This document shows, one piece after another, positions 1 to 27,439 of a stretch of 64,000 bases of DNA. The DNA lies in contig JBILFA010000004.1 of the NCBI GenBank assembly GCA_044351795.1, forward strand, positions 3 to 64,002, written 5' to 3'. The stretch comes from Bdellovibrionota bacterium. Lineage in GTDB: Bacteria > Bdellovibrionota_C > UBA2361 > OMII01. Position 1 is the first letter of the stretch. The number at the start of each line of letters is the position of its first letter. The translations under genes were made by a program, and so were the position numbers. Below the pieces are notes generated by a model that was given only the letters and a program-made list of their open reading frames with translations, was not told where the DNA came from and searched no databases.

Positions 1-239
1 CCCGAGCTCCGCCGCGCTTCGCTTCGCGGGGGCTTTTGATTGCCCCCCGCTCAGCGCGGCTCCTTACCAATTCCGGAATTTACAGAAAGGATGGTGCACT
101 ATCTATCGTGACGTATGAGCTGTTAAGATAACGAAGCAGGAGAGCACACGTCGCAGTGGAAACGTAACAGGAGCGAGCCCAGATCGGATTCTATCAATAA
201 AGAAGCCAAGAGTTTTAACTACAGTGACAGAGAGATGGT

Positions 240-767
240 ATGAGAGAGATGAAATTGTTTTTCGATCAAAACCAGCTTTTCGAAGTCATATTTACAGACC
301 GTGCTAGTGGCTTACATTGCCACTGCGTGAGAGGTAAAGGTGCTGGAGCATACCACTCCGCGGGCTCGTTTCAGTGGACGGCCGCGGTAAAGGGACTAGC
401 TCTACTGCTCGTGCGAGCGGTCAGTGGCCTGGACCCGCACGTCATACACGGATATGCAGGGTCGCTTGCTTCAAGCCTCGATTATGCTATCTCCAAGCAG
501 CCTGTATGGATCTCAGACATGTTCGGCTTTGACGCCGCTGGAACCTGCCTAGTCCGACGATTGGTGCGTCGAACCAACCCTGAGCGCAAGAGGCCAGGGC
601 CAGTGGTGCTCTCGTTGAATGAGCGATTTATGCCCTCTGGCGCGATTACCATCTTTGTGAATGGTATCCCATGCTCACGAGAGGAGTTAGTCGTATTGGC
701 TGCAGCTCTTTCTCGCGAGGACACGGAACTCCCGCGGAAATCTGTCACATTATCAGCAGCCGCGTAG
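240..767 (+). CDS. Hypothetical protein, family-A paralog 1 (unrecognised conserved domain)
   Basis: 175-aa ORF, probable start ATG 249 (MKLFF). Shares the ordered motifs GSFQWTAAVKGLALLLV / SLASSLDYAISKQPVWISDMFG / NPERKRPGPVVL / ITIFVNG with the ORFs at 3543, 6792 and 8701. Confidence 0.75.
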   Translation: MREMKLFFDQNQLFEVIFTDRASGLHCHCVRGKGAGAYHSAGSFQWTAAVKGLALLLVRAVSGLDPHVIHGYAGSLASSLDYAISKQPVWISDMFGFDAAGTCLVRRLVRRTNPERKRPGPVVLSLNERFMPSGAITIFVNGIPCSREELVVLAAALSREDTELPRKSVTLSAAA

Positions 768-935
768 CATGTTCACAGTGGTACACGAAGACAGGGGTAT
801 GCAGCCACCCAATCTATGGCTCTATTGAATTTCTAAATCAGGCCGAACGGCTGATGAGGCAGAGCTATCTCTAGAATAGCTGGCTACTACCCTGTCTTGG
901 TTCGACACCACTTTGTGCAGCAGAGGAGCGTCTTG

Positions 936-1124
936 TTAGTAATAGAGGTTTTGTACCTTTGGGCGGGGTAGTATCAAAGTAGTCATGCCGCGATCGATAT
1001 TGGCAACCGACACAGCTTGAGGAGCAACGTCACCAAGCAAACGAGCAGTTTCTCGTTGCAGATTGCCTGTTGTGCTAGCACAGCCTAGCAGTAGCGGTAT
1101 AGTAACGAGCGCGAATAGAACCAT
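936..1124 (-). CDS. Small putative lipoprotein
   Basis: Track ORF 936-1184. An internal ATG at 1124 gives MVLFALVTIPLLLGCAS, a signal peptide with lipobox LLGC. The 20 codons upstream run through the att-like repeat and are probably not coding. Confidence 0.4.
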   Translation of the reverse strand: MVLFALVTIPLLLGCASTTGNLQRETARLLGDVAPQAVSVANIDRGMTTLILPRPKVQNLYY

Positions 1125-1145
1125 CCATTTTGTTATCTTAACGTT

Positions 1146-1179
1146 CTCCCCTCTCCTTCTTCTCGAGGTATAAGCGCTG
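1146..1179. repeat. Direct repeat DR-c: 34-bp copy of the rep 3' core (candidate distal att site)
   Basis: ctcccctctccttcttctcgaggtataagcgctg matches 38640-38673 with one mismatch. It also matches 27298-27329 over the same core. All three copies are in the same orientation. Confidence 0.6.
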
Positions 1180-1511
1180 AGCAAATCAAGACTGGCCTCA
1201 ATTAGGCATAGGGGCTCCGTCTATTGCCCTTTGCCACACACGTTTCTGACGGCTGCGAGCGCCACTCTGCGGATCGCAACTGGAATATCAGTAGTTTATG
1301 GACTCACTGCGTCTTAGCGAGCTGTCCTAACCACAATTTACCATGCTGCATATTACTTACAGTTTAGTCAGACTCACTCTAGCTGAGCCTATGAGACGTA
1401 GGCCCCTGCTCCAGAAGGACCTAAGAGCTAAAAGAATCGCGCGGCTTCCTTGTCTACTGGTGAAACCACGGGTCAAAGCTCGTGGGTGGCTGAAAAAGTG
1501 TTTGACTTTGA

Positions 1512-2927
1512 TTGGTCAGCACTACTACATATAGCCGATTAGTTCTGCGTTATGAGGATAAGCAAGTGAAAGTGACTCAGCGCCAGCGATCAAACCCCGC
1601 AGAGAATCCTCGCTTTTGGTCAGCTAATGCCCATGGCCTTCATCCCTCGCTTGCCGCTGCATTTACCCGTGCGCACAAAACTGCAAACGTTTATGGCTCT
1701 GCTCCATATGCGCAAGATACCTACACAAAAGCTCTCGCCCATGCTGTTAGTGAACTCTTCGGGCCAACTGCGCAGGCTCACCTTGTTCCTTCGGGAACGA
1801 GCGCTAATGCTTTAGCGCTTTCTACCTTTGTTGATTCTACCTCGACTATCGTAACGCCGGCTTGCTCCCACATTGCGCACTTCGAAGTTGGGGCAATCGA
1901 GTATGCCACCCAGGGAGCGCGTATCGACCTTATTCCCGATTATATGGGGAAGATTGACGCCCGCTCGATAGATTGGAAGTTGAGGGCGCGGTCTTCCTTG
2001 TTGCCCGAACAGCTACCTCAGCCCAAGGTGCTAGTTGTGTCACAGCTCACTGAGCTTGGTACTTGCTACTCTGTCGCTGAAATGCAGGAACTCTCCGAAA
2101 TTGCTCATACTCGGGATATGAAATTGGTGGTAGACGGGGCGCGGTTATTCCAGGCGGCTCAGGCTTCCAACGTCGACCTACGACGTTTTGTTACAGACAC
2201 CGGAGTAGATGCACTTTCACTCGATCTTTCGAAATGCGGCGGGGACGGATGCCTGGTTATCTTCTTTTCGGATGAATCGATGAGCCTACAGCTGCGACGC
2301 CGTATGAAACAATGTGGTTTGGTGCGTCCCTCTGGGTTCGGTGCTGCCGCCGCGGCCGTAGAGCTCCTTGGGTCGAGCATGTGGAAGCAGCTCGCTTTGC
2401 AGGTCAATAGCCATGCATCTGCGCTAGCTCACGGCTTGGCGCGAATAGGAATCAGCACAGCATACCCCGTTCAGGGAAATTTAGTCTTTGTTCGGCTGCC
2501 ACAGGTTGTTCGAAGCCACCTTGAGACTTCACATCGTTTTTATACCTGGGACCGAGTCAAAGGGCTGGTACGTTTCGAAATAGGGCATGCAACTACACAC
2601 GAGTGGATAAAGTCGCTTCTGGATGACATCGAGGCCTGCTTGCCTTTACTTGAGGTGTTTGCATACGATGTAAAAACCTTTAGCGAAATGCCGCTCCGAA
2701 AACTTCGCATGCTCCACAACGATGGAAAAATATCAGATGAGATGTTCTTCGCTGCAGCGCAGCGATCAGTTTCGAATCTAACTGTGGGGCAGCTGCACCA
2801 GCTCCTTGAATCTGGAGTACTTACCCCTGCTGAGGTATCTGAGTTATGCATATCGGTTGCAGGAATAGAAGATGAGTTCGCTCAGTGCCACCGTAAGCTA
2901 AGGGCATGTGCCAATGGGGATTTGTAG
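1512..2927 (+). CDS. PLP-dependent threonine-aldolase-like enzyme (beta-eliminating lyase family) with a C-terminal extension
   Basis: VPSGTSANALAL, DGARL and LSLDLSKCGG (candidate PLP lysine) line up with low-specificity threonine aldolases. The start is uncertain (in-frame GTG at 1566). I cannot match roughly the last 110 aa to anything. Confidence 0.6.
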   Translation: MVSTTTYSRLVLRYEDKQVKVTQRQRSNPAENPRFWSANAHGLHPSLAAAFTRAHKTANVYGSAPYAQDTYTKALAHAVSELFGPTAQAHLVPSGTSANALALSTFVDSTSTIVTPACSHIAHFEVGAIEYATQGARIDLIPDYMGKIDARSIDWKLRARSSLLPEQLPQPKVLVVSQLTELGTCYSVAEMQELSEIAHTRDMKLVVDGARLFQAAQASNVDLRRFVTDTGVDALSLDLSKCGGDGCLVIFFSDESMSLQLRRRMKQCGLVRPSGFGAAAAAVELLGSSMWKQLALQVNSHASALAHGLARIGISTAYPVQGNLVFVRLPQVVRSHLETSHRFYTWDRVKGLVRFEIGHATTHEWIKSLLDDIEACLPLLEVFAYDVKTFSEMPLRKLRMLHNDGKISDEMFFAAAQRSVSNLTVGQLHQLLESGVLTPAEVSELCISVAGIEDEFAQCHRKLRACANGDL

Positions 2928-3036
2928 CCGCTGGGGACTTTTCTCTCCATTGGCTTGGTCGACACTAGGACCTGAATGTTGATTAGTTCGGAAGCGCTGC
3001 GAAGTACTCTGTCTTAATGTATCAAAGGAACAGGTT

Positions 3037-3381
3037 ATGATGAGTCCCTTTATTCAATTACGAAACGTCCCCAGCGCAGAACCCATGGAGGGGTTTTCTG
3101 GGAAGTTTGTCCATTCCGAATACATGACAATAGCGCGCTGGATTATTAGATCAGGCTCTATCCTTCCGGCTCATTCTCACTTGCATGAACAGGTAGCCGA
3201 AGTCCTTTCAGGGGAATTCGAGCTTACGATAGACGGGGACACCGAGGTCCTGACACCCGGAATCGTAGCCGTTATTCCGCCTAATGCTGTGCACTCGGGT
3301 CGAGCTATCACTGATTGCGAGATTATCGACGTGTTTTTCCCCGTGAGAGAGGATTATCGCTCGGCAGACACTCACACATAG
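3037..3381 (+). CDS. Cupin domain protein
   Basis: 114 aa. PAHSHLHEQVAEVLSGEFEL followed by IPPNAVHSGRA resembles the two cupin metal-binding motifs. SD-like aaaggaacagg lies upstream of the ATG. Confidence 0.65.
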   Translation: MMSPFIQLRNVPSAEPMEGFSGKFVHSEYMTIARWIIRSGSILPAHSHLHEQVAEVLSGEFELTIDGDTEVLTPGIVAVIPPNAVHSGRAITDCEIIDVFFPVREDYRSADTHT

Positions 3382-3542
3382 CAGACAGCTGGCTGGGTCA
3401 AGGATACCAGGCACTCAAATCACATTTGGGAGGGTAGCGCTAAGCTAGGAGCTTCATCACAGTTTTGTGTAGAACTCATAGCTATATTGTGGCATGAATT
3501 AAGTTGAGAGCATCTTGTTAAGGTCCAAAGTGCGGGAGGTCC

Positions 3543-4775
3543 ATGCACATTAACCTTGCGTTCCTCAGTTGCCCCGGGGGTCCCGAGCTCCTACACATCG
3601 TATTTACTTGCGACACTATCAGGCGCGAGTGCAGCAGAGGTTCGCCAGTAACAAGCAAAGACGGCCGCGGGGCATTCCGCTGGTCTGCGGCAGTCCAGGC
3701 CCTCGCTCTCTTACTAACGCACCACGCCGTTGCCGAGCTCGAGGGTAGGCCACGTGGGACGCTGGAAGGCGATAAGGGCTCTCACGCTGCTTCGCTAGAT
3801 TACGCCATCTCTAAGGAACCTGTCTGGCTCCTGGACATGTTCGGAACTACCGCGAGAGGAGACGCATTTATCAACCGGATTGTGGAGCGCGAAAACTCTG
3901 AGCGCCGTCGCCCCGGTCCAGTGGTCCTGAAAGTCCGATCAGAAGCCCTAGCCCCTACAGATGTAAAAATCCATCTGGACGGAGCTCCACTAGAGGGCAA
4001 ACAGCAGCTACTGGACTTTTGCGGGATCCTACGACGTGCGCTGTCTGTTAGCTCAGAGGGCGACGACCCGGGATACTTGAGTGGAATGCTCGAAAAATTA
4101 GTGATCGACGGAGATGCATTTCTGCGTACACTGAACCTTCAGTCCTATGTGCGGGATCTACGAGCGGATCTTAAGTTACTGGCTGATAGACCGGAGCAAG
4201 GCTGCATAATTGAGTACATAAAGAAGCAGATTAAAGAAGTCTGCATCATGAGTGAAGCGCACTACGCCTCCACCCTCGGTGGGCTGGCAGCTGACGAGCC
4301 CTTTTTATTTTCATGTTCATCGCTCATTGATGCTGGAGTCGAAGCATATGTTTCTGACCCTCATTGGCAATACTTGTTATTCCGCTTCGGTAGCGCCTTT
4401 AAGGTGCGCGGGAAGGTTCCCCCTCTTCGCATCTTTTTTGTAAATAGTGAAACCTTGTGGCAGACAAATCTTCATCATATCGATCACATCATTCGCCAAC
4501 ATCTCGCCTGCGGCATCAATGTAAAATTGGTGCCAGATGAGGCAGTGGTACAAGCAGCGCGTGATAAACGCAACATGGCCATTTTTGGCCATAAGGTGCT
4601 GCTGCATGCGACAGATCAAGTCTCGTGGGACTTAGATTTGACCGTTGAGATGAGTGCGCTGCGGGCTGCCAAGGACAAGCATTTTTATTTTCAAAGTCTT
4701 GACGGTTGTCATATAAAGGCCACGACTCGAGATCCACTTGCTCTGGTAGCGGAGTTTTCGCGCACCATGCTCTGA
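3543..4775 (+). CDS. Family-A paralog 2 fused to an uncharacterised C-terminal domain of about 230 aa
   Basis: The N-terminal part carries GAFRWSAAVQALALLLT / ASLDYAISKEPVWLLDMFG / NSERRRPGPVVL / VKIHLDG. I do not recognise the C-terminal half (PHWQYLLFRFGSAF...IFFVNSE...NMAIFGHKVLLH). Confidence 0.7.
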   Translation: MHINLAFLSCPGGPELLHIVFTCDTIRRECSRGSPVTSKDGRGAFRWSAAVQALALLLTHHAVAELEGRPRGTLEGDKGSHAASLDYAISKEPVWLLDMFGTTARGDAFINRIVERENSERRRPGPVVLKVRSEALAPTDVKIHLDGAPLEGKQQLLDFCGILRRALSVSSEGDDPGYLSGMLEKLVIDGDAFLRTLNLQSYVRDLRADLKLLADRPEQGCIIEYIKKQIKEVCIMSEAHYASTLGGLAADEPFLFSCSSLIDAGVEAYVSDPHWQYLLFRFGSAFKVRGKVPPLRIFFVNSETLWQTNLHHIDHIIRQHLACGINVKLVPDEAVVQAARDKRNMAIFGHKVLLHATDQVSWDLDLTVEMSALRAAKDKHFYFQSLDGCHIKATTRDPLALVAEFSRTML

Positions 4776-4792
4776 CGCTAAGGACCTACACT

Positions 4793-5725
4793 ATGGCAAA
4801 TAATCTTATCGTATCGGGCATTCGAAATACGGGAGAGAACTGCTCTTCGGACCCTAATATAGATGTCGAGTCCAGAGTCAACTGGAGCTCAGTAGCTGAA
4901 AGCTATGACTGGGGAAGGCCATTTCCGCCAGAGCATGTACAGAAGTTATTTGAACAAGCACCTGAGGTTCACAGGCTCCTCTTACAGGGGGCAGTGGTCG
5001 TGGATATTGGAGCGGGGACCGGCAGAATTACCGTTCCTCTGGCAAAGCAATATCCGAACAGCACATTTATAGCGGTTGATAATTCAGAGACACTGCTCCA
5101 AGTCTTATCCCGACGCTCACATGATCTATCGAAACAGCCGCAGTGTATTCACCAAGATCTCATAGCTTCTCAGCTCTTACCTTCGGGGGATGTTTATATC
5201 TTGAGTTCCGTACTGCATGCCCTTCCCGTCTGGAAGAATGTTTGCAGGGCTATTGCCGAAAGTATACGTCCAGGCGGTCTCGTAGCATTAATCGGCGAGG
5301 AGGGAGACATCTATAACCTTTCACTTGGAAGAGCTCCAGCTCAGCTGCCACCCATGCCAGCTAGCAATATCCTATCTAGCTTCTGGAAACAGTACCACGA
5401 ACTGCGCACCTCTGTAGGAGCGCCACCCGTAGAAGGAACGCAGATCGGCTGCAGCTGGGAGGCCACTAATGCTGAGGCAGTTGATTGCTTTCGTGCTCTA
5501 GGATTCAAGGAGTCAGGCAGTGCCAGTCTGCAGTGGACACGCACTGTCGAAGCTTCTGAACTTATGAGAATTGTCGATGAACGAGTTTTTTCGTCGCTTA
5601 TGGCACTTTCCCCACACCAGTTTTCGCAAATTCAAAATGGACTGCGGGCCCTCGTGTCATTACACAAAGATCTGTCCGATGAAGCTCGGTGTTTAGCGAC
5701 TCTTCGACTTATGACCAAAGAGTAA
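4793..5725 (+). CDS. Class I SAM-dependent methyltransferase
   Basis: Motif I VVDIGAGTGRITVPLA. Start refined to ATG 4793 (SD aagga 8-12 nt upstream). The track start at 4706 would overlap the upstream gene by 70 nt. Confidence 0.7.
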   Translation: MANNLIVSGIRNTGENCSSDPNIDVESRVNWSSVAESYDWGRPFPPEHVQKLFEQAPEVHRLLLQGAVVVDIGAGTGRITVPLAKQYPNSTFIAVDNSETLLQVLSRRSHDLSKQPQCIHQDLIASQLLPSGDVYILSSVLHALPVWKNVCRAIAESIRPGGLVALIGEEGDIYNLSLGRAPAQLPPMPASNILSSFWKQYHELRTSVGAPPVEGTQIGCSWEATNAEAVDCFRALGFKESGSASLQWTRTVEASELMRIVDERVFSSLMALSPHQFSQIQNGLRALVSLHKDLSDEARCLATLRLMTKE

Positions 5726-5773
5726 GACAGATATAAGCGGCTCAGGAGAAGTTAAGTATTCAGGAGATAAGGT

Positions 5774-6574
5774 ATGACTGAAGAAGCATTCGAGTCACAG
5801 TTCGCTGACGTTGAGCTCGAGGACTATAAGGACAACGCCGAGTTCTATGAGCTTGAAGAGCGAGCTCGCCCCGATGAAATGGCCATGATTCACGGTGCCG
5901 GCATGGAAGCGCTGGCTATTGCTCGATCGAGGGGAAAAGCTACCGTTCTTGATCTTTGTTGTGGTACAGGTCTCTCGCATGAGCTTTTGGTGAACGACCC
6001 GTCGATTTCGCGGATCGTAGGCGTTGACATCTCAGAGCCCTACCTGGAGTTCGCCCGGAGTGCATACGCCTCTGCTAAAACTGTCCCGTCTTATATCCTG
6101 GGTGATGTCGTCACTCATCCTCTGCCTGTTGTTGCATGGGACATAGTCATGATGTGCTCCGCTTACCATCACATCGAAGATAGTCGAAAAGTCGACTTCC
6201 TCAAGCGAGTGAGGGGATTGATCCAGCATGGAGGAAGAGGAATCTTTGCCGAGAATATTCTTCCTGCATACAGCCCTGGGGATACACAGCAGTACTCTCA
6301 ATCCGTTCGCCTGTTTTATGAGTCCGTTTTAGAGACAGCTCGCAAAGACAATCCCGCACTTCCAGAGGTTGTAGAACGCCTAATATGGCGTGTGGCCCAG
6401 TATGGGTTCGATGGTGAATATGAGTATAAGGTCAGTTATGACATCTTCCAGGCCCATTTGAATGAGGCTGGCTTAGAGGTCGTAAAGGAGCAAAAAGTTT
6501 GGCCTTCGATCTCCAACAACCTGCTCGGCACGGGTGGAAACTACGTTGTAGTGGTCAAAGCTCGAGACGCCTAG
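5774..6574 (+). CDS. Class I SAM-dependent methyltransferase
   Basis: Motif I VLDLCCGTGLS, with downstream DIVMMCSAYHH. SD aggaga lies upstream of ATG 5774. Confidence 0.75.
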   Translation: MTEEAFESQFADVELEDYKDNAEFYELEERARPDEMAMIHGAGMEALAIARSRGKATVLDLCCGTGLSHELLVNDPSISRIVGVDISEPYLEFARSAYASAKTVPSYILGDVVTHPLPVVAWDIVMMCSAYHHIEDSRKVDFLKRVRGLIQHGGRGIFAENILPAYSPGDTQQYSQSVRLFYESVLETARKDNPALPEVVERLIWRVAQYGFDGEYEYKVSYDIFQAHLNEAGLEVVKEQKVWPSISNNLLGTGGNYVVVVKARDA

Positions 6575-6596
6575 GGTAGGACTTTACACATAAAAT

Positions 6597-6624
6597 ACCA
6601 GCAGCTAGTTCCCTAGCTGCTGGT
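6597..6624 (+). terminator. Strong hairpin after the methyltransferase operon (terminator candidate, no clear U tract)
   Basis: accagcagctag-ttcc-ctagctgctggt forms a perfect 12-bp stem 23 nt after the stop at 6574. Confidence 0.45.
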
Positions 6625-6791
6625 CCTATGAAGCTTCCCACCTTATCTGAATTTGGCTCCAGAATAAGACTCTGACTTTTCCGTATACGATTTCCCCAGT
6701 TGCAGCGCCCTACGGGGGCCGGCAACAAATAAATGTGCGGCTTCTGCCGAGTCTTTATCGTTTCCGCTGTTGATGGGCACATTAAGGGGGG

Positions 6792-7355
6792 ATGATCATT
6801 ATGTACATGGCAATTGAGCTCCATTTCGCGTCGGGTAATGAGGTTCAGCTAACCCACACAAAGGTCAGAGATCAGAGGGGCATCTGGTATAGAACAGTCA
6901 GAGGACACACGGAGGGGGCTTATAAAGGTCACGGAACCTTCCAGTGGACTCGCGCTGTGAGAGCTCTTTCGCTCCTGCTCGTTGAATACTGCATGTCGGG
7001 AAGCGTGCGCCTCGAAGGTACGAACGGGTCTCTTGCGAGCTCTCTTGACTATGCCCTCAGCAAAAGACCGATTTGGCTCCTTGACGTATTCGGCGTCGAT
7101 AGCGCCGGAGTTCCCTCCGCACGCCGTCTCTTTAAAGTCACTAACCCCAACCGTAAACGCCCGGGGCCGGTAGCTATTCGAGTTGACGAACACGTTCTTC
7201 CAAGCGGCAACATTAGAATATTCCTGGACAGAGTTCCAATTGAGACAACTAGCGAACTTGAGCCCCTTGCGAGAACTCTCAAGGTAAATGAGAGTGGCGG
7301 CGGCAACGTTAGCCTCCGACCGGTGCCCGCAGCTGCTGTCACATGCGCAGCCTAA
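6792..7355 (+). CDS. Hypothetical protein, family-A paralog 3
   Basis: Probable start ATG 6807 (MAIELHF). Motifs GTFQWTRAVRALSLLLV / SLASSLDYALSKRPIWLLDVFG / NPNRKRPGPVAI / IRIFLDR. The antisense ORFs 6849-7391 and 7049-7342 are treated as shadows. Confidence 0.75.
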   Translation: MIIMYMAIELHFASGNEVQLTHTKVRDQRGIWYRTVRGHTEGAYKGHGTFQWTRAVRALSLLLVEYCMSGSVRLEGTNGSLASSLDYALSKRPIWLLDVFGVDSAGVPSARRLFKVTNPNRKRPGPVAIRVDEHVLPSGNIRIFLDRVPIETTSELEPLARTLKVNESGGGNVSLRPVPAAAVTCAA

Positions 7356-7410
7356 GCCAGCGGCGGTCTCCTCCTCTCTATCAAGCCGCACTAGGAGGAT
7401 TTCGGATACA

Positions 7411-7426
7411 TCGCCTCATTCACAGG
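7411..7426 (+). promoter_or_regulatory. Upstream box copy (tcGCCTCATTCAcagg)
   Basis: One of seven oriented copies of the GCCTCATTCAGG core. It lies about 60-75 nt upstream of the ATG at 7488. Confidence 0.4.
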
Positions 7427-7487
7427 ACCCCATAGATAGTAGGATAGACAGGCATCATCATAGTTCGCTAACAAAGGAGCACTGTGC

Positions 7488-8237
7488 ATGAAGAAGCATG
7501 ATTGGAAGCCTGATACGATCTTGAGCTATGATGCCTCTAGCGACATTTGTAAGTTAGCGCACGGTGAGCCTCGGATGTCGGTGGCCCTCGCCGTTCTGGA
7601 AGACGAAATCCTTACTACAGAACAGATTGTACAATTCAGATGTCTACTACGCCGAAAAGAAGCGCTTCTTCAGGTCGACACAATCACGCACCATCGACGT
7701 GCCGGTACACTCGATAAGATAGCCAGGAGCATCCTCGACTCGCTCGTTATTACGAAAGGGGGATACGTAGCTCTAACAATCCCGGCACAGACAAGCGACC
7801 TTGAGGCTCTCATAGCGTTGAATGCCTATTTTCGAACGCTGCACCCCGCCTTTAAAAGGGACGCTATCTACACTGGAGACCTTGAATGGTATGGAGCACT
7901 GGAGAGCGTTACTCAGCGCGACACAACTATGCCACGGCGTATTTCTATACAGACGCTCGTTCCAAGTACTCAGGGCAAGACGTACAAGCAGCAGGAAAGG
8001 GTACTCGAGCTTCGGCGCTTAGAGCCAGCGGACCCCTTGGAGCAGGCTCTCGTCGCAGCTGCATATGCGTGCGCGAACAAGGGAAAGGATATTTTTCAAG
8101 GGAAGTGGGTCCGTGGTGCTATCGAAGGCATAGTGATAGCGGCACCCGCGAGCGATGGCATCACAGTCGTTAAGTTAGGTGCTGCTGGCGACCCAAACAC
8201 CGCAATTTCTGGAACTCCGATTAAGACGAGGTCCTAA
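7488..8237 (+). CDS. Hypothetical protein, family-B member 1 (partner of family-A paralog 3)
   Basis: 249 aa with SD aaaggag upstream. The N-terminal SSDICKLAHGEPRMSVALAVLEDEILTTEQIVQFRCLL aligns with the N-terminus of ORF 9704. The rest is unrelated to it and unrecognised. Confidence 0.65.
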   Translation: MKKHDWKPDTILSYDASSDICKLAHGEPRMSVALAVLEDEILTTEQIVQFRCLLRRKEALLQVDTITHHRRAGTLDKIARSILDSLVITKGGYVALTIPAQTSDLEALIALNAYFRTLHPAFKRDAIYTGDLEWYGALESVTQRDTTMPRRISIQTLVPSTQGKTYKQQERVLELRRLEPADPLEQALVAAAYACANKGKDIFQGKWVRGAIEGIVIAAPASDGITVVKLGAAGDPNTAISGTPIKTRS

Positions 8238-8310
8238 CAGGAGGTTTCTTCTGATAGGCGAGAACAACTGTTAACTGGATGCCGTACAGGAGAAGTCAAA
8301 GATAGAGTTA

Positions 8311-8496
8311 CTATGCATCCTGAGAAGGACTGAGGCGTTTTGCCATCAGTTGTGCATTGAACTCCGCTCCGTCGTAGCCGTGATGAACCCGTCGATGACA
8401 GTTCGGGCATAGGGCAGTGACCCAGTCTGGATGGTTGCAGTTCCGTGATATCCCGCCACCGCCATCCACGCGTAGAAGCTCCCCTTGAGAGATTCC
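8311..8496 (-). pseudogene. HNH endonuclease C-terminal remnant
   Basis: A minus-strand frame different from track ORF 8234-8722 reads ...NCNHPDWVTALCPNCHRRVHHGYDGAEF...*. LCPNCHrrvH is the HNH zinc-finger end. There is no start codon and the frame opens right after a stop. Confidence 0.3.
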
Positions 8497-8665
8497 TTAC
8501 AAGGTAGGAAGGTTTATGCGCTAATCCCTGCTCTTTCTCTCTCGAGGGCGTACGTGCCCCATTTCTCCCCAGCATTGGGGAGAAGCTCCCCAGTAATGAA
8601 CACCCGCACCCGAATGATTTCAAGTGGTTGTGGTGGCTTCTTGAGTGGCACGTCGCTTGCGGAAG

Positions 8666-8708
8666 GTCCTCACATAAAACCACCGCACTAAGGTTAACAT
8701 GTGAGGAC
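8666..8708 (+). promoter_or_regulatory. 10-bp perfect inverted repeat that would occlude the SD of family-A paralog 4
   Basis: gtcctcacat (8666-8675) pairs with atgtgaggac (8699-8708). The right arm contains GAGGA 8-9 nt upstream of ATG 8716. Confidence 0.3.
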
Positions 8709-9312
8709 ACCATATATGGCAAAGACTAACACCCGACTTGAACTTTACTTCGGCAACACCTCTTCTCCTGGCCTCTACCGTACGGTGTTCGTACCGCCCT
8801 ACCAAACCCAACCAATTGTAGGCCTCCGAGGGACAACGCTTCACACTACGGCTCTTCCGTTTATCTGGGGCCCGGCTTCGCAAGCTCTTTCGCTTCTGTT
8901 CGTATCAGCAGTCGTGCGCAAGCTGTCAGGTGAGCCGATTGCGCTACCGCTCCTTGAAGGACCCAGCTTGAGTCCCGCAGGCGCGCTTGCCCGCCTATTA
9001 AAGAAGAGAACTACCTCGTGGCTACATGACCTCTTCGGTTCCGACGCTATGGGACGTTCTCTCCTTCACCGAATTATTATGTTGGGAAATGCTAGAGGTA
9101 AGCAGCAAGGACCTATCATCGCCACGCTCAACGAAGCCTACCTGTCTTCTCACGACATATCGATCCTCGTAGAGGGGCAGGACATTTCCAACGACTTTAA
9201 GGCTCTGGTGAAGCTACGTGATTCATTGCGCAGCTCTTTTATTCCGCGGAAAGACCCTCTCGCCAACAGTGTTCTCTCTCGCAACCGGAGCATTGAGCTC
9301 AAAGCAGCCTAG
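8701..9312 (+). CDS. Hypothetical protein, family-A paralog 4 (most diverged)
   Basis: Probable start ATG 8716 (MAKTN). It keeps the family skeleton: LELYF, PFIWGPASQALSLLFV, WLHDLFGSDAMG, GKQQGPIIATLNE, ISILVEG. Confidence 0.65.
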   Translation: MRTPYMAKTNTRLELYFGNTSSPGLYRTVFVPPYQTQPIVGLRGTTLHTTALPFIWGPASQALSLLFVSAVVRKLSGEPIALPLLEGPSLSPAGALARLLKKRTTSWLHDLFGSDAMGRSLLHRIIMLGNARGKQQGPIIATLNEAYLSSHDISILVEGQDISNDFKALVKLRDSLRSSFIPRKDPLANSVLSRNRSIELKAA

Positions 9313-9377
9313 CACAAGCTCTTAGATTGTACTTGAAAGGCGACAGTAAGATAAGAGCACGAGTGAGAGCCGGACAG

Positions 9378-9482
9378 ATGCCGGAGATCGACACCCAGGA
9401 ACTCGACGCGCTCACTAGGGAGCACGAGAAGAGGGAACAGCAACACAATCTTGGGCTATCGCGGTCACGATTTAAGCGGTGA
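9378..9482 (+). CDS. Small conserved charged peptide (paralog of 46187-46372)
   Basis: MPEIDTQELDALTREHEKREQQHNLGLSRSRFKR. The DNA at 9365-9483 is an inverted copy of 46187-46305, and several of the differences are synonymous. The frame is open upstream, with a possible TTG start at 9333. Confidence 0.4.
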   Translation: MPEIDTQELDALTREHEKREQQHNLGLSRSRFKR

Positions 9483-9581
9483 GTAATCGGAACAAAACCG
9501 ACAGGTTGCGACAGCAAGGTTGCTTAGCGCACGCGTTTTCTTACAATACCCATATCGCTGTTGTAATTCGAAGGAGAGCGC

Positions 9582-9701
9582 ATGAGCGATTCACTGTACG
9601 AACAATTTAGAGAGCTTTTAACAGGCGAGGTCCTTTCTCCCGAGGAAAAAGAAGTTCTCAGTCGTAAGATCCTTGCAATCATATTTGGAGAGGAGCAGTA
9701 G
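9582..9701 (+). CDS. 39-aa ORF translationally coupled to family-B member 2
   Basis: ATG 9582 with SD aaggag at 9571-9576. MSDSLYEQFRELLTGEVLSPEEKEVLSRKILAIIFGEEQ. The stop ends 2 nt before ATG 9704. Confidence 0.4.
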   Translation: MSDSLYEQFRELLTGEVLSPEEKEVLSRKILAIIFGEEQ

Positions 9702-9703
9702 TT

Positions 9704-10294
9704 ATGGAATCGGTTCAGATAACACCAAAAGCTAGTTTGGATATAGCAAAGCTTGCGCTGGGAGCTGATAGAGCTCAGGTTGCGCTTGATGCTCTTCAGG
9801 AATCCAACCTTAGCCCGGCTCAGGTCAAACAGCTTGAAGCTCTACTGAAAATGGTATCGCCAACTGAAGGCGCCGCTTCCGCCACTACATCCCCAGCTGT
9901 CGCCGAGCTAAAGTCAGTCGATGGCCACCAAGCTGTGGTAGGCAAAATAACAGTCAATGGCCAGCAATTAGATACCCTCCTGTCGGAAGGGGCTTTTAAC
10001 AAATCACGAGCGGATCAACACGAGTATGCCGCAAAATTAGATTGCCGGATGGCTACCCGCGCAGAGAGTCGAGCGTATGTAGATAGTTTGCTTACAAAAG
10101 AGGAAGATAAATCAATTAACGCAGCTGAAGCCAATGCCCTTAAAACCTACAGGAATTGGTTCGTACGGGATGATGAAGGCGGGCTTGTTGTTGATGGTCG
10201 GCGTGTTCGCGACGGCCGCGGCAACTACTGGCGCGAAGACGCCTATCCTGGCCTCGGTGCGTTGTTTGTGCGCGCTTCTGCGGAATCAAAATAA
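9704..10294 (+). CDS. Hypothetical protein, family-B member 2 (partner of family-A paralog 4)
   Basis: The N-terminal SLDIAKLALGADRAQVALDALQESNLSPAQVKQLEALL aligns with ORF 7488. The C-terminus (CRMATRAESRAYVDSLL...GNYWREDAYPGLGALFVRAS) only faintly recalls DUF1566/FGE-type folds. Confidence 0.65.
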   Translation: MESVQITPKASLDIAKLALGADRAQVALDALQESNLSPAQVKQLEALLKMVSPTEGAASATTSPAVAELKSVDGHQAVVGKITVNGQQLDTLLSEGAFNKSRADQHEYAAKLDCRMATRAESRAYVDSLLTKEEDKSINAAEANALKTYRNWFVRDDEGGLVVDGRRVRDGRGNYWREDAYPGLGALFVRASAESK

Positions 10295-10322
10295 TTTGAT
10301 CGTTGATCATTGGTTTCTTGGT

Positions 10323-10340
10323 CCCCTCCGGTAGGAGGGG
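10323..10340. terminator. Hairpin between convergent genes
   Basis: cccctcc-ggta-ggagggg forms a 7-bp GC-rich stem between the stop at 10294 (+) and the stop at 10399 (-). There is no clear U tract. Confidence 0.3.
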
Positions 10341-10398
10341 TTGGGTCCATTGATCCTTGGTACTTTGATCGAAAAATTTTCTACTTTAGCCGTGGTCG

Positions 10399-10998
10399 TT
10401 AATGGGCCACCAGCGAGTTATACGCATCGATGATCCTCTTAGTTCTCTCAGTAGCCACCTGCTGAAGATACGGATCTAGGCTGGCTACCTTATCTGGATG
10501 ATTCATTTGCACCAATTTAAGGTAGCGGGCTTTAAGCTCTGTTCTCGAGGTCCCCGGCGAGACGCCTAATATGTAGTGCGGATCGTCTGGATCCAGATCT
10601 TCGCCGCCACCACAAGGACCTGTATCATCAGATGGATTAGGTCCGCCGTTTCCTGACCCGTAATCATCCCCCGAGTGATAGCTTCCGCTGGAGTAGGTCT
10701 TAGCCTTCTCCTGAACTTTAAATCCCAACTTTGCGAGAGCCAGTCTTCCAAGTGCTCCAACACTTCCGATGCAGGCGCGCCAGAGATAAAGCACCGCGCG
10801 CGTCACAAGTCGAAGCAGCGGGGCAAAGACTGTCAGAACCCGAACAACCAGGTGCAAGGCGAACAAAAAAATACAGGCTGCCACCAGATAGGGAACGATA
10901 ACTACCAGAACCGGCCAGGCGTGGAAGACTATCCATGCAGGTATAGCAAGAACAAAAAAGAGCGCCTCGAAAGCATTTCCTACTAGAGTCCAACCCAT
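10399..10998 (-). CDS. Membrane-anchored J-domain (DnaJ-like) protein
   Basis: The C-terminal YILGVSPGTSRTELKARYLKLVQMNHPDKV carries the HPD motif. The N-terminal approx. 90 aa are hydrophobic (2-3 TM helices), followed by a Gly/Ser/Asp-rich linker. Confidence 0.75.
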   Translation of the reverse strand: MGWTLVGNAFEALFFVLAIPAWIVFHAWPVLVVIVPYLVAACIFLFALHLVVRVLTVFAPLLRLVTRAVLYLWRACIGSVGALGRLALAKLGFKVQEKAKTYSSGSYHSGDDYGSGNGGPNPSDDTGPCGGGEDLDPDDPHYILGVSPGTSRTELKARYLKLVQMNHPDKVASLDPYLQQVATERTKRIIDAYNSLVAH

Positions 10999-11080
10999 GC
11001 AAAGTTCCTATCGATACCTACATTACGATACGACAAAATGCTCCTGCATGATGTAACGTTTTTGTAAAAACCCCTCGAGA

Positions 11081-11096
11081 CACCTGAATGAGGCAC
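11081..11096 (-). promoter_or_regulatory. Upstream box copy (gtGCCTCATTCAGGtg on the minus strand)
   Basis: About 85 nt upstream of the J-domain gene start at 10998, in the same orientation as the gene. Confidence 0.4.
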
Positions 11097-11122
11097 TAGT
11101 AGGGGGCCAGTGCCGGCGAGCT

Positions 11123-12094
11123 CTATAGTCGCTCGAGATCTCTCCCGATACGGCTTAGGATTTCAGCTAGTGATGGGCGTCCCTTAAAATAGAGGCTCGC
11201 GCTTCGATCGTACTCCTTCTCAAACAGGGCTCGATCCAGTGAGTCGGTCAGCTTGAAGGCGTCACTATTTGCTATCTTGATGTCGTCGCCACCGAATCGC
11301 TCTTTCTTAAAATGCTCATACTCATCGGTACCGATGAAGCCTTGAACATCCGGCCGCTCAATCAGGTGGAAAAGATCGTAGTAGTGTCTAATGAAATTAG
11401 CTGGCAAGCTTCGTCCTGGATCCCCATCCTTGTAAAGGCGAAACTTTCGAACTACTGCCTGGAGCTTCTCCACAAAAGTGAACTTAGGCTCGTAGCAAAG
11501 AACTCCCAGAGCTCGGTTATCGATGATATCAATGCCAGGTGCGCTGGCAGCTCGCTCGTATGCCCATGAGGTAATGAGTCGCGGTTGGTTGGGTGCAGTT
11601 CGATCAAATCCCAATTCGAGCAGGATGCCATTTTTTAGGCCATGAATGGTAAAAAGAGAGCGATAAAAGAGCCTGACACCGCCACTCCTGAGCTTCGCGG
11701 TATCATCAAACGCTTGATCACGCTCGCTACCTATAATACCGGGAATCGCGTCCCTTAGATAATCGGCGATCCAATCGAAGTACCGTTTTCGCGACTCCCG
11801 ATGCTTCCGTTCATCGTGGTTTCTACTCGAATAAACTTTGAATCCGCATAGCTTCTCATCAGGCTCGATTTTAATGTCGATGTCCTCTGAAAAGCGGTGG
11901 ATGCAATCGTATCCCTTCGACAGAGAAGTGCCTCCTTTAAGTTGGAACTGCAGTCCCTGCTGCTGAAGCCCCCACAGCACATGCATCAACCAGTAATCTT
12001 TCTCTACAAGAAAGGGGTCCTTGATACCCATCGCGGTTGAGGTGATCTCAATGAGGTCTTTGAAGTCGTCTCGGTTGTGGAGGAAGTCGCTCAT
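11123..12094 (-). CDS. abiEii: Nucleotidyltransferase toxin, AbiEii/AbiGii family
   Basis: LKGGTSLSKGYDCIHRFSEDIDIKI is the family NTase motif. The start overlaps the upstream antitoxin stop by 1 nt (TAATG). Confidence 0.8.
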   Translation of the reverse strand: MSDFLHNRDDFKDLIEITSTAMGIKDPFLVEKDYWLMHVLWGLQQQGLQFQLKGGTSLSKGYDCIHRFSEDIDIKIEPDEKLCGFKVYSSRNHDERKHRESRKRYFDWIADYLRDAIPGIIGSERDQAFDDTAKLRSGGVRLFYRSLFTIHGLKNGILLELGFDRTAPNQPRLITSWAYERAASAPGIDIIDNRALGVLCYEPKFTFVEKLQAVVRKFRLYKDGDPGRSLPANFIRHYYDLFHLIERPDVQGFIGTDEYEHFKKERFGGDDIKIANSDAFKLTDSLDRALFEKEYDRSASLYFKGRPSLAEILSRIGRDLERL

Positions 12095-18443: not shown

Positions 18444-19661
18444 TTAGCTATCACGCACCACCTGCGCCGTGCCACGATCGTATCGATAGTTAGCAATGGC
18501 TCCGTCTTTGAGCTTCTCGATCGCCCTTTCAATCGCTGGCAACGGAACAAGGAACCACTCCCTAGGCTCAACCTCCACACCAAATCGGTCCTTTAATTCC
18601 AGATCTAAGCGCGCCTCGGAGAAGAACTTATGCAGAAGTGCCTCTAAACGCTTGCGATTGATGTTGGCCAGCTTGAAAGACGCGACCACTTCAACATCTG
18701 CTAGCAAGTACGTCGGGTCTTTCCTTGCATTCGCGATCCGGCTCTGAATATCGCCCCCGGTGACACCAATCTTGTGAACGACGCTTCTGTGCTCGGAAAT
18801 AAAGGGATGTTCTGACTTACTTCGCAGGACATAGATGTAGCCCGTCTCAGTATCCCCCTCCTCCTCCTTGTCCGAGAACAGGTGGTATTGCGTCCCTGAT
18901 ATGATACGACGACTTGCTTTATCTTTATTCAGTGCTCGCTGGAGAGAGCGGACAAGCAGTTCGCTTTCCGTGCCATTGTCGTAAATAACTCGTATACGAC
19001 GATCCTTACGGCCATGGTCTGGAACAAACCAATCCCCGAGCTCGGCCACAAGGACTTTTTGACCATCGAGCACGAACAGGTCTCTCTTCGCCACCTCGGC
19101 ATCATCCCGATACTTAATGGTAACTCTCTCGCCAGATCCTAGGTCGCGTTGAACAGCTTCAAACACCGGCTTGAATTTCTCAAAATCGACGCACGGATTA
19201 CGCTGAGCAATCTCCTCTGCCGCCCGAATGTCCTCCTGCGACCGCACATGAACTAGTTTGGTGATTGAGCCTCCAGGTGATTCCTCCCCACCTAGTGAGG
19301 CAAGTAGAGTCACATCATCGAGCTCTTCGTCTACAGCTTGTCCAGCATCGAGGAGTCCGTTGGTGTCGAAATGTTTCAGGACATCTCGGCACTCCGGAGA
19401 CTTTCGTATGCTATCGAGTCTCACGGCGTACAGCCGTTCGAAGATGTCTCGATTCTCACTCCGCTCTGGCAAGCGCCCATGCTCCGATACAAACCTGACG
19501 ATCTCCTCGAAACCCGCGATGATACGTTGCTCCCGTGGGGAAGTGGCATCATCTGCCTCAGAGGCAGTCTCAACCCCTAATTCATCCAAAAGCTCAATGT
19601 CTTCGTTGGTTACACCCTTAGGCATTCGTACTTTCCTTGACTTTCTTCTGAAGGAAGGCAA
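18444..19661 (-). CDS. T5orf172 / GIY-YIG-superfamily domain protein
   Basis: The C-terminal GYIYVLRSKS...HKIGVTGGDIQSRIANARKD...EWFLVPL is the T5orf172 pattern. The N-terminus has a GRLPERS helicase-associated-like module. An alternative start is ATG 19625 (8-nt overlap with the helicase stop). Confidence 0.7.
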   Translation of the reverse strand: MPSFRRKSRKVRMPKGVTNEDIELLDELGVETASEADDATSPREQRIIAGFEEIVRFVSEHGRLPERSENRDIFERLYAVRLDSIRKSPECRDVLKHFDTNGLLDAGQAVDEELDDVTLLASLGGEESPGGSITKLVHVRSQEDIRAAEEIAQRNPCVDFEKFKPVFEAVQRDLGSGERVTIKYRDDAEVAKRDLFVLDGQKVLVAELGDWFVPDHGRKDRRIRVIYDNGTESELLVRSLQRALNKDKASRRIISGTQYHLFSDKEEEGDTETGYIYVLRSKSEHPFISEHRSVVHKIGVTGGDIQSRIANARKDPTYLLADVEVVASFKLANINRKRLEALLHKFFSEARLDLELKDRFGVEVEPREWFLVPLPAIERAIEKLKDGAIANYRYDRGTAQVVRDS

Positions 19662-21678
19662 CGCCCTCGGCCATACGCTTCTCCCAAGGGTCCATCGCGG
19701 TTAGGGAAGGCAGCCTACCCTTCTCCTCCTTGAAGCGCTTTGCTCGCTTCGCGAGCTCACGAGCCTCCTCTATAGACATGCTGATTCGCTTTGCTGCAAT
19801 AACTTCGGCGACCATCCTAAGGCGCTCTTCACTCATGGACTTAGCGAGTATCGCGTATGCCTCACCAAACGGATTGACGCTATCAATAAGGTCGATATCA
19901 AGTTCTCTCACATGCAGAGCATATCGTCGAACACCATCGATGAGAGCCGTATTCCCGGTCTCGACTGAGCTCCCTTGATTCAAATCCGTCAGCGCCTTCT
20001 TGCCCTGCTGGACAAGATTTAGTGCAGCGACCGCGTGCTGGCGGATCGCTTCTTGATCCTCCTCTCCACATTCAGGGTATCGCTCCTTGATAATCTTACC
20101 CATTCTGACTTGTGTTAGCTCCTGCGGGACCACCTCACTGTCGAACAAGCCTCGCTCAATAGTCTGCTTGTCTTGGACAAATGCTGTAATCAATTCAGTC
20201 AGGTCTTCTCGACAGATCCGTTGGGCCTCCCTACTCTTCGGTGCCGCTAACCCCTTTATCTCAAGCTCAAGTTGACCGGTGTTTGGGTTCACACCGACAT
20301 TACACCTAGCTTGGTCGTACCCCCCGTCCCCGTAATCCATCCCAGGGGTCGGTCCGTTATTGGGATTCTTCGGGCGGAACTCGAACCTCGGAGCTAGAAC
20401 CTGCTCCATTAGAAGACTTGCGGCGATTGCCTTCAGAGTATCGTTCACCGCTTCATTGACCGCCGATTCGGCCGCGTCAGGCTCAGCAATTAGATTGGTG
20501 AATCGAGCTCTCGTCTTTCCAGGCGCATCTCGAGTGGCTCGTCCAATGATCTGGACTATTTCTGTGAGGCTCGCTCTGTATCCAATCGTCAGCGCATGCT
20601 CACACCAAATCCAATCAAAGCCCTCCTTAGCCATACCCAGGGCGATGATGATATCCACATGGTCTCGGTTGTTCTTTTGATTCGGATCTTTGAGAGAGGC
20701 GGAAACCCTATCGCGTTTAGCTTGTTCATCATCAACCAGATCCGCGATTCGAAGTACCTTTCCGCTCGCAACCTTGACGAGTTGAAATCCTGTCGTTGGG
20801 TCCGTTCCCTGCCACTGTCCTAGCTGTTCGAGAATGTGCTCGACTTCGCGGATCTTGTCCTTCGTGCTCTCTCGCGAGTTCACGTTGGGAATATGGACTA
20901 TAGTTTTCTCATCGTGGTCAAGAACCTTGAGAATCTCGTCCGTGTAGCTGCCAGCATAGAAGTAATATCCAATATCGAGCTGCTTTAAGTACTGATAGCC
21001 ATTAAGCTGCTCGTAGTAGGTGTAAGTGACCGTCTCAAACTTTGCCTCGTCTTCTGGGTGCAAGACCGCTTCGGCGTCACCACGGAAGTATGATCCCGTC
21101 ATAGCCACCAGGTGCGTTTTACCTCGAGCTATCAGCTGACGGACGTGATCCCCTAACCTGCTGTCAGGGTTTGCTGATACGTGATGGAACTCATCTACCG
21201 CTATAAGGCGATCGTCGAATACCTCGACACCGTATTTTTCAACCGCGAACCGGAAAGTTGCGTGCGTACAGACCAGCGCCTTATCTTCGGTCGCAAGAAA
21301 CGCCTTTAGACCATCCACTTTACCACCGTTGTCGCCACCCGGCGCATCGCATAAGTTCCACTTCGGTTCTACCTTCCAGTCAGCCCAAAATCCGTACTGG
21401 GTAAGCGGCTCGTCGTGAAAACTGGATCCTATGGATTTCTCGGGCACTACGATAATAGCCTGTTTGAGCCCTTGATTCTGGAGCTTATCGAGGGCGATAA
21501 ACATTAAGGCCCGACTTTTTCCTGACGCAGGTGGGGACTTTATCAAAAGGTACTGCTCGCCGCGTTTCTGATAAACGCGCTCTTGCATCGGCCGCATGCC
21601 GAGAGCGTTTGAGCGAGTGGAACTTCCGTCCTGAGCATAACTTACCGAAACTGACGGAACCGATATCCCGTTACTCAT
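19618..21678 (-). CDS. DEAD/DEAH-box (SF2) helicase
   Basis: Walker A SPPASGKSRAL, DEFHH box and motif VI QIIGRATRD. There is a C-terminal GRLPSL helicase-associated-like tail. The start overlaps the methyltransferase stop (ATGA). Confidence 0.85.
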   Translation of the reverse strand: MSNGISVPSVSVSYAQDGSSTRSNALGMRPMQERVYQKRGEQYLLIKSPPASGKSRALMFIALDKLQNQGLKQAIIVVPEKSIGSSFHDEPLTQYGFWADWKVEPKWNLCDAPGGDNGGKVDGLKAFLATEDKALVCTHATFRFAVEKYGVEVFDDRLIAVDEFHHVSANPDSRLGDHVRQLIARGKTHLVAMTGSYFRGDAEAVLHPEDEAKFETVTYTYYEQLNGYQYLKQLDIGYYFYAGSYTDEILKVLDHDEKTIVHIPNVNSRESTKDKIREVEHILEQLGQWQGTDPTTGFQLVKVASGKVLRIADLVDDEQAKRDRVSASLKDPNQKNNRDHVDIIIALGMAKEGFDWIWCEHALTIGYRASLTEIVQIIGRATRDAPGKTRARFTNLIAEPDAAESAVNEAVNDTLKAIAASLLMEQVLAPRFEFRPKNPNNGPTPGMDYGDGGYDQARCNVGVNPNTGQLELEIKGLAAPKSREAQRICREDLTELITAFVQDKQTIERGLFDSEVVPQELTQVRMGKIIKERYPECGEEDQEAIRQHAVAALNLVQQGKKALTDLNQGSSVETGNTALIDGVRRYALHVRELDIDLIDSVNPFGEAYAILAKSMSEERLRMVAEVIAAKRISMSIEEARELAKRAKRFKEEKGRLPSLTAMDPWEKRMAEGVAFLQKKVKESTNA

Positions 21679-27232: not shown

Positions 27233-27439
27233 CTACTTCGATCTCACCTCAAAGTGATCAATCAACATCCTGCGCTGGATGGTAGCGAACAGAACCCCTC
27301 CCCTCTCCTTCTTCTCGAGGTATAAGAGCATGTTAATTACCAGCGCCTTATGAACGGCTTCTTTCGTCGCATAAGGAGCTACCACAGCGTGATGCGCGGT
27401 GTTTTCGAAGTAGCGCCTTTGGTAAGGCTGGGAAGCCAC
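27233..27439 (-). pseudogene. Displaced 3' fragment of a rep-like gene
   Basis: ...KEAVHKALVINMLLYLEKKERGGVLFATIQRRMLIDHFEVRSK compares with the Rep C-terminus REAFDNALSFNQRFYLEKKERGGVLFATIQRRMLIDHFEAKS. Only about the last 45 codons are homologous. Confidence 0.6.
27240..27329. repeat. Direct repeat DR-b: 90-bp near-identical copy of the rep 3' end
   Basis: Aligns base for base with 38582-38671 with about 7 mismatches by eye, in the same orientation. Confidence 0.75.

Follow-up and report, generated by a model that had tools for sequence, protein, structure and literature searches.

An undescribed domain family, probably DNA-binding, with four diverged copies on a conjugative element of a Bdellovibrionota bacterium

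The window analysed here, a stretch of 64,000 nucleotides from a Bdellovibrionota bacterium (assembly GCA_044351795.1, contig JBILFA010000004.1), was a conjugative element with an RPA-type replication initiator, a relaxase with DUF3363, VirD4 and a VirB11-like ATPase. It also carried genes for an SH3/M23 lytic enzyme, ArdC, an integrase, two AbiEii proteins, an MmeI-type restriction-modification (RM) system and Fic. Four open reading frames (ORFs), A1 to A4, all on the + strand, shared one domain, here called family A (Table 1). A preliminary description of this DNA had reported the four ORFs (in A2, the N-terminal ~170 aa) and their ordered motif blocks, and both were recovered: G.F.W[TS].AV..L[AS]LLL, SLDYA[IL]SK.P[VI]W..D[MV]FG and N[PS].R[KR]RPGPV were found in the alignment, with degenerate versions in A4. 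The first ~170 residues of the four copies could be aligned, with 32–46% identity to A1 and 27 invariant columns. Pairwise BLASTP E-values ranged from 2e-14 to 3e-41 (A1 and A3, 3e-41; A1 and A4, 2e-16; A2 and A4, 2e-14), and a hidden Markov model (HMM) of the family, run over the 64 kb of the window, matched exactly these four ORFs. At the DNA level, alignment was left only at the conserved motifs (62–78% identity), and the closest relatives of each copy belonged to separate subfamilies, that of A4 being a divergent one (P0002 and P0004–P0012). The four copies are therefore old paralogs and not local duplications, in agreement with the preliminary description, which had judged them too diverged for recent duplication. 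The true start of A4 is most likely ATG 8716 (giving 198 aa), judged from a GAGGA ribosome-binding site and agreement with P0002, and for A3 a start at 6801 or 6807 is possible.

Scans of the four copies against Pfam, NCBIfam, PADLOC and PHROGs gave no family-A domain match. When 123 aligned members were scanned singly against Pfam at E ≤ 10, no weak family recurred and no match to the LysR helix-turn-helix (HTH) domain PF00126 was obtained; a profile search of PDB sequences with family A gave zero matches at E ≤ 10. With the structural search (see below), which had no significant match either, neither profile nor fold gave a confident tie to a characterised family, and the initial impression that the domain maps to no known family was borne out. 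An earlier description of family A was not found in the literature. We conclude that family A is an undescribed domain family, with a putative role that belongs to a well-known kind of system.

A word-indexed profile search returned at least 208 homologues, none with a functional name; those named by their source were 'hypothetical protein', and the family-A records in NCBI, JGI and ENA carried no functional name. When 1.84 billion representative proteins were searched exhaustively with a profile, 1,112 clusters (defined at 50% identity) reached E ≤ 1e-3 and 635 reached E ≤ 1e-30. Scanning 185,579 species-representative genomes gave 85 loci, and the 80 loci fetched represented 42 genomes. All fetched loci came from metagenome-assembled genomes (MAGs), for the most part under the labels Bdellovibrionota, Bdellovibrionales or 'delta proteobacterium', with lakes and rivers indicated by many sample names. 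Copy numbers per genome ranged from one to at least six. Judged from these sequence records, family A is apparently restricted to uncultured freshwater Bdellovibrio-like bacteria.

In each of the 150 representatives listed, the domain began the protein or lay close to its N-terminus, and the few later domain starts are probably miscalled start codons. Family-A proteins occurred in two forms: most were stand-alone, of 170–210 aa, and the others had the domain followed by an extension of 200–900 aa. The dominant class of extension (45 members among the proteins clustered here) was not recognised by Pfam, LysR_substrate (PF03466) included. Its AlphaFold2 (AF2) model (predicted local distance difference test, pLDDT, 86) had a type-2 periplasmic-binding-protein (PBP2) fold with 248 Foldseek matches in the PDB at E ≤ 1e-3, including SsuA, TauA, Thi5 and YhfZ, the last a regulator with a GntR-type HTH and a PBP fold. 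Other extensions consisted of tetratricopeptide repeats (TPR), GTP-cyclohydrolase-II-like domains with or without HAD and, in P0260, a weak NACHT/AAA match. Fused members had input and output domains in one protein, with no HisKA or receiver matches, and the sequences read showed neither a signal peptide nor a transmembrane segment on inspection by eye.

One-component regulators of the LysR and YhfZ types are built in this way, a small basic N-terminal module standing before a PBP2 or TPR sensor in the cytoplasm. PBP2-fused family-A proteins had the same order, and like these regulators family A is present as several paralogues per genome, adjoining or co-transcribed with metabolic genes; some PBP2-class members also had a divergently transcribed neighbour. 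The family-A module had no detectable relationship, in sequence or structure, to the LysR HTH (PF00126), to GntR or to other Pfam HTH domains. It also differed from the LysR and YhfZ types in its size (~160 aa) and N-terminal three-stranded sheet, in that most members were stand-alone, and from LysR in that its fused C-terminal domain was SsuA/Thi5-like. The window copies had no PBP2 domain, and the one-component architecture applies to A2 by analogy only, its C-terminal domain having no assigned fold. In at least four loci (Table 1), a gene of ~550–600 aa with an N-terminal Cys-rich zinc-ribbon-like segment was transcribed divergently from a PBP2-fused family-A gene; it could be the regulatory target of the latter.

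In the window, positions 240–6574 formed one conserved enzyme cassette, in which A1 and A2 were combined with genes for a pyridoxal-phosphate-dependent (PLP) lyase, a cupin and two methyltransferases (MT1 and MT2). The preliminary description had each copy opening a different gene context, with variable C-terminal contexts. A variable C-terminal extension was confirmed for one of the four copies (A2), but the gene contexts were not independent, since copies 1 and 2 sit in this one cassette. The start of MT1 follows the A2 stop by 17 nt, and co-transcription of the pair is likely. The C-terminal domain of A2 was a near-orphan: among 5.8 billion proteins it had just two relatives, P0267 and P0268, and both were encoded in the same type of enzyme cassette (loci L095 and L094, respectively). 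The gene order in the window was A1, PLP lyase, cupin, A2 with its C-terminal domain, MT1, MT2. In L095 it was a family-A gene (187 aa, end LAA), cupin (61% identity), P0267, itself a family-A fusion with the same C-terminal domain (48% to A2), MT1 (44%), PLP lyase (33%) and MT2 (64%). In L094 it was P0268 (36% in the C-terminal domain, E 1e-26), PLP lyase (26%), MT1 (34%) and MT2 (50%).

P0268 combined the A2-type C-terminal domain with an Xre-type HTH_3 domain in the N-terminal position. The family HMM gave no match to P0268, and its isolated N-terminus matched Pfam HTH_3 with 23.1 bits (cut-off 23, E 7.7e-5) and also HTH_31 and HTH_26. A2 thus resembled an Xre/HTH_3-fused regulator in its C-terminal domain and in the accompanying PLP lyase and two methyltransferases, and differed from it in having a 160-aa family-A domain instead of a 60-aa Xre HTH. 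Because the same C-terminal domain, in company with these enzymes, bears an Xre HTH in L094, the family-A domain, as judged by this comparison, is in the position of a classical DNA-binding domain in a cassette-dedicated protein. The HTH_3 cassette adjoined a gene for a WD40-repeat protein of >1,100 aa on a contig with a GC content of 58%, which indicates for L094 a host lineage quite unlike that of the window. The window cassette ended, 23 nt past the MT2 stop, in a perfect hairpin with a 12-bp stem (ACCAGCAGCTAG-TTCC-CTAGCTGCTGGT) and no + strand T-run behind it; this hairpin could mark the boundary of a module or serve for recombination.

The AF2 model of A1, built with a 123-sequence alignment, had a pLDDT of 90 and a predicted template modelling (TM) score of 0.85. 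After an N-terminal three-stranded sheet, the core was ordered helix, strand, helix, helix, strand, basic loop (NPERKRPGP), strand (H48–62, E68–71, H76–86, H89–95, E109–112, loop, E122–126), followed by a final helix and a disordered C-terminal tail (pLDDT < 50). This predicted order fits a winged-helix topology, which is suggestive and not proof. It is the order of the winged-helix domains of MarR, forkhead, MukE and RepL, with the basic loop as the 'wing', although family A has extra residues inserted after the third helix and before the wing, and that helix is itself hydrophobic. Foldseek searches of the model against PDB and BFVD gave no significant match. About 20 of the top 50 weak matches were winged-helix proteins (FOXK1, several MarR-type regulators, MukE, ROQ and RepL), all of them non-significant (E ≥ 0.17, probability at most 0.33, TM ≤ 0.32). 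The domain was basic (median isoelectric point 9.4), with approximately nine conserved Arg/Lys, including those of the RKRPGP loop.

The absence of significant similarity to any DNA-binding fold, the hydrophobic central helix and the weak matches to ROQ, which is RNA-binding, would also suit a non-DNA-binding regulatory module. This might be a protein–protein or adaptor domain for RNA polymerase, a sigma factor, a protease adaptor or another regulator, or else an RNA-binding domain, and a C-terminal '-AA' tail (see below) would suit a titratable, unstable partner-switching factor. We regard such a module as unlikely, since the counterpart of the cassette protein in L094 has a bona fide HTH instead of the domain, family A has a basic isoelectric point and conserved Arg/Lys, and its N-terminal position before sensor domains is typical of DNA-binding outputs. 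Still less can be said for an enzyme or small-molecule-binding domain that acts in the adjacent pathways without regulating them, which we consider highly improbable. A2 was apparently co-transcribed with methyltransferase genes and some fusion partners were enzyme-like (GTP-cyclohydrolase-II-like, HAD, Thi5-like PBP2), but the invariant positions were occupied by Arg, Lys, Asn, Gly, Trp and Phe, and a conserved Asp/Glu/His/Cys/Ser constellation of catalytic type was absent. Most members were also stand-alone genes in unrelated contexts, and no enzyme fold matched the family-A domain.

A C-terminal Ala-Ala (AA) was present in 103 of 196 stand-alone members (53%) and in 5 of 54 fusions, compared with 1.4% of background ORFs from the same loci (binomial p about 1e-133). 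Three of the four window copies had this terminus (A1 ...SAAA, A3 ...TCAA, A4 ...LKAA), as did the stand-alone copy in L095. ClpX recognises C-terminal ssrA-like AA (C-motif 1), as in the ssrA tag and Caulobacter CtrA. In family A the terminus came after a low-confidence tail (pLDDT < 50) and would thus be accessible, as C-motif 1 of ClpXP demands. Given this enrichment and the established recognition of C-motif 1, the stand-alone forms may be turned over by ClpXP, and the sequences suggest that they are unstable, short-lived substrates. They resemble C-motif-1 substrates in having a disordered tail that ends in -AA in 53% of members; in contrast to these substrates, the likeness is a sequence signature only, and -AA was missing in nearly half of the stand-alone members and in nearly all fusions.

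On long contigs, homologues were located among housekeeping genes (ATP synthase operon, argG, hisS, flagellar genes), and in the sampled loci family-A members were mostly chromosomal. Among 88 non-redundant family-A genes, the commonest neighbour was another family-A member and no universal partner gene was found. The median upstream gap was 256 bp, a same-strand downstream neighbour was present in only 34 of 82 cases, and the genes were mostly monocistronic. Flagellin or flgK lay near family A in two of the first three contexts, which was due to synteny within orthologue groups and was not family-wide. B1 and B2, encoded downstream of A3 and A4, were rejected as an obligate partner family: they shared only an N-terminal motif of ~40 aa, and B-like genes did not recur beside family A.

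The preliminary description had proposed a polymorphic conflict, immunity or adaptor family. In a family of this type, a constant N-terminal module would be attached to, or precede, effector or immunity cargo that varies from one mobile element to another. The window offers some support for this: the four diverged paralogues are on a conjugative element that also bears AbiE, the MmeI-type RM system and Fic, and the content of the slot occupied by B2 varies between sister plasmids (see below). The C-terminal extensions are variable, one of them with the weak NACHT/AAA match, and tandem arrays occur elsewhere, as in L057, where four family-A copies were interleaved with genes for a cytosine/purine permease and a methyltransferase. 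However, neither a conserved neighbourhood nor an enrichment on mobile elements was found, and the proposal fails on these grounds. The sampled loci were in a housekeeping context, and PLSDB and INPHARED, which hold few or no genomes of this uncultured lineage, gave zero matches; in IMG/VR, likewise poor in the lineage, family A was on only 3 of 2.9 million contigs. PADLOC and PHROGs gave no matches, the identified fusion partners were PBP2, TPR or enzyme-like and not toxins, and no recurrent adjacent gene with the character of a partner or immunity gene was found. A family-B-like gene, whose constant presence the preliminary description had raised as a question, was missing beside family A in 88 other loci. 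In addition, the core subfamily to which A1 belongs was kept at 50–65% identity across species, which is not diversifying behaviour. We therefore consider a conflict or immunity role very unlikely, and family A is dropped as a candidate new defence or conflict system.

The core subfamily was highly conserved, with approximately one or two chromosomal copies per genome, and A1 was 64% identical to its chromosomal orthologues. On a sister element, the A1 homologue P0003 (90% identity) was encoded directly after a TrbC–TrbI type IV secretion system (T4SS) operon. Homologues of H-NS, MvaT and HU are found on plasmids, and the small, basic family-A protein could similarly be a nucleoid-associated or global silencer-type DNA-binding protein, with the plasmid copies as 'stealth' homologues of the chromosomal one. 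The conservation and copy number of the core subfamily, the identity of A1 to it, the place of P0003 beside a T4SS operon and a long conserved 5' region of the core genes are points in its favour. We nevertheless give this alternative little credit, as the PBP2 and TPR sensor fusions and the many divergent paralogues in one genome are more in keeping with specific regulators, and the cassette-linked A2 with its HTH_3 swap points to a local regulator.

A conserved non-coding block was situated ~170–215 bp upstream of core-subfamily genes in L009–L014, L018 and L001/L010. It contained an inverted pair, GTGTCAAA-N~31-TTTGACAC (GTGTCAAA...TTTGACA(C)), followed by ATTATTCAGTAATTGTTTC, and could be a promoter/operator or a 5' untranslated region element. 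The inverted pair was rejected as a family-wide operator; it was confined to chromosomal core-subfamily genes and missing from the window. Six MAGs (L069, L085, L076, L078, L079 and L083) had a common four-gene chromosomal cluster, in which two adjacent family-A genes were flanked by genes for two paralogous proteins of ~135–150 aa with the ends ...YFGW/...LFNW, which gave no Pfam match.

Taken together, we consider it probable that family A is a new, lineage-specific and probably DNA-binding output domain of one-component-type regulators, maybe winged-helix-like, with degron-tagged stand-alone paralogues. That it belongs to regulators is indicated by its N-terminal position, the PBP2 fusions in LysR/YhfZ layout, the one to at least six paralogues, the monocistronic genes and the absence of an obligate partner. 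DNA binding is proposed from the displacement by HTH_3, the basic isoelectric point and the winged-helix-like topology; like the regulation of adjacent genes and the proteolysis, it is something we infer. Several observations weigh against this interpretation. The HTH swap is known from one protein, P0268, and a profile search with the PBP2-type C-terminal domain for further swaps found nothing beyond its own query sequences. Nor need a PBP2 fusion partner be a sensor, since enzymes such as Thi5 share this fold. No operator-like motif common to the promoters of the orthologous window and L095 cassettes was found, nor a motif common to the upstream regions of the four window copies. The best PDB match of the A1 model had an E-value of 0.068 and a TM of at most 0.28, with no significant match to a known DNA-binding domain, and the putative recognition helix (PVWLxxMF) was short and hydrophobic, which is atypical.

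If family A is such an output domain, the ~160-aa module would be a nucleic-acid-binding, dimerising part of transcription regulators in an uncultured freshwater Bdellovibrionota-like clade. Fused members would join it to a C-terminal sensor, most commonly a cytoplasmic PBP2 domain and otherwise TPR, nucleoside-triphosphatase or enzyme-like domains. Stand-alone members would consist of the domain and a disordered tail, often with an ssrA-like '-AA' that would make them short-lived ClpXP substrates. In the window, A2 would sense a ligand related to the enzyme cassette and control transcription of the cassette, and A3 and A4 would head accessory modules with B1 and B2 on the conjugative element.

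Two sister elements differed from the window in this region. In L089, a short contig with the same P0003 protein, a B1-like gene came immediately after the A1-like gene, and the window block ~768–7445, from the PLP lyase to A3, was an insertion/deletion difference. L090 was 98% identical to window positions 8261–9514, which include A4, matched again at 10281–10390 and had a different gene of 254 aa in the slot of B2. As the sister plasmids differ there between conserved flanks, the B slot is apparently a position behind stand-alone A genes in which the cargo can be replaced, and the differences at L089 and L090 indicate that the region is an accessory zone built of modules, each of them headed by an A gene. 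A 51-aa ORF that follows A4 was kept in L090 and overlapped one of three internal repeats (120–250 bp) scattered over the element. Convergent on the end of the A/B array was a gene for a DjlA-like membrane protein with a C-terminal J-domain. Elsewhere, the window had a co-directional accessory cluster with a full-length arginyl-tRNA-synthetase paralogue, unusual inside a cluster of biosynthetic appearance, and a defence-like block (Table 1). Rfam and tRNA scans of the window were empty, and megablast of window positions 1–12000 against plasmids gave no match.

Table 1. Coordinates of the genes and features described (window positions unless a locus is given)
Feature	Position	Strand	Description
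A1	240–767	+	stand-alone, 175 aa; conserved 'core' subfamily; disordered tail, end ...LSAAA; heads enzyme cassette
PLP lyase	1512–2927	+	PLP-dependent beta-eliminating lyase (threonine aldolase/GntG-like); Pfam PF01212 1.2e-32; NCBIfam GntG-like
Cupin	3037–3381	+	Pfam Cupin_2 8.9e-12
A2	3543–4775	+	fusion, 410 aa; family-A domain ~3543–4050, rare C-terminal domain ~4140–4694; proposed cassette regulator
MT1	4793–5725	+	S-adenosylmethionine (SAM)-dependent methyltransferase 1; Pfam Methyltransf_12/25/11; probable start ATG 4793 with ribosome-binding site
MT2	5774–6574	+	SAM-dependent methyltransferase 2; Pfam Methyltransf_25/11
Hairpin	6597–6624		at cassette end
A3	6792–7355	+	stand-alone, 187 aa; end ...TCAA; precedes B1
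B1	7488–8237	+	249 aa, no functional assignment
A4	8701–9312	+	stand-alone, divergent subfamily; end ...LKAA
51-aa ORF	9327–9482		follows A4
Internal repeat	9360–9500 and 46170–46312		inverted, 85%; overlaps 51-aa ORF
B2	9704–10294	+	196 aa, no functional assignment; in variable slot
DjlA-like protein	10399–10998	−	membrane protein with C-terminal J-domain
AbiEii genes	11123–12094 and 53625–54413
Defence-like block	18444–24497	−
T5orf172/MUG113 protein	18444–19661		in defence-like block
DEAD/ResIII helicase	19618–21678		in defence-like block
MmeI-type fused RM	21675–24497		in defence-like block
Internal repeat	27240–27361 and 38582–38703		86%
Accessory cluster	29789–38001		co-directional
AMP-binding enzyme	32529–33779		in accessory cluster
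Amidotransferase	33779–35578		asparagine-synthase-like; in accessory cluster
Arginyl-tRNA synthetase	36100–38001		full-length paralogue; in accessory cluster
Internal repeat	46342–46587 and 47463–47702		81%
Fic gene	60364–61071
B-slot genes, sister plasmids	L090:1465–2229; L089:1735–1896
HTH_3 cassette surroundings	L094:1–3345	−	WD40-repeat protein gene adjoins the cassette
Zinc-ribbon-like divergent gene	L059:4110–5744; L068; L070; L097:6143–7816		divergent from PBP2-fused family-A genes
Core-gene upstream block	L010:5785–5831		example
Four-gene cluster	L085:5241–6450 and flanks		example

A further-reaching version is that family A is a structurally new nucleic-acid-binding fold and a major lineage-specific transcription-factor family of an uncultured freshwater Bdellovibrionota clade. 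Its stand-alone members would then be timed by ClpXP, like CtrA and SciP, and would compete or heterodimerise with ligand-sensing fused paralogues, and the plasmid copies, such as A1 homologues beside a T4SS, would link accessory cassettes to the host network; we hold this for possible but doubtful. Should the regulator interpretation be true, the 1,112 clusters would represent a sizeable regulator family with a DNA-binding module that is invisible to current domain libraries and to PDB fold search, and for this reason regulators of an uncultured, predator-related lineage would be annotated as 'hypothetical' across the board. The small plasmid region with four paralogues, one of which would control an enzyme cassette, would then be a handle on a new DNA-binding fold and its operators, and also on a possible proteolytic timing by -AA tails.

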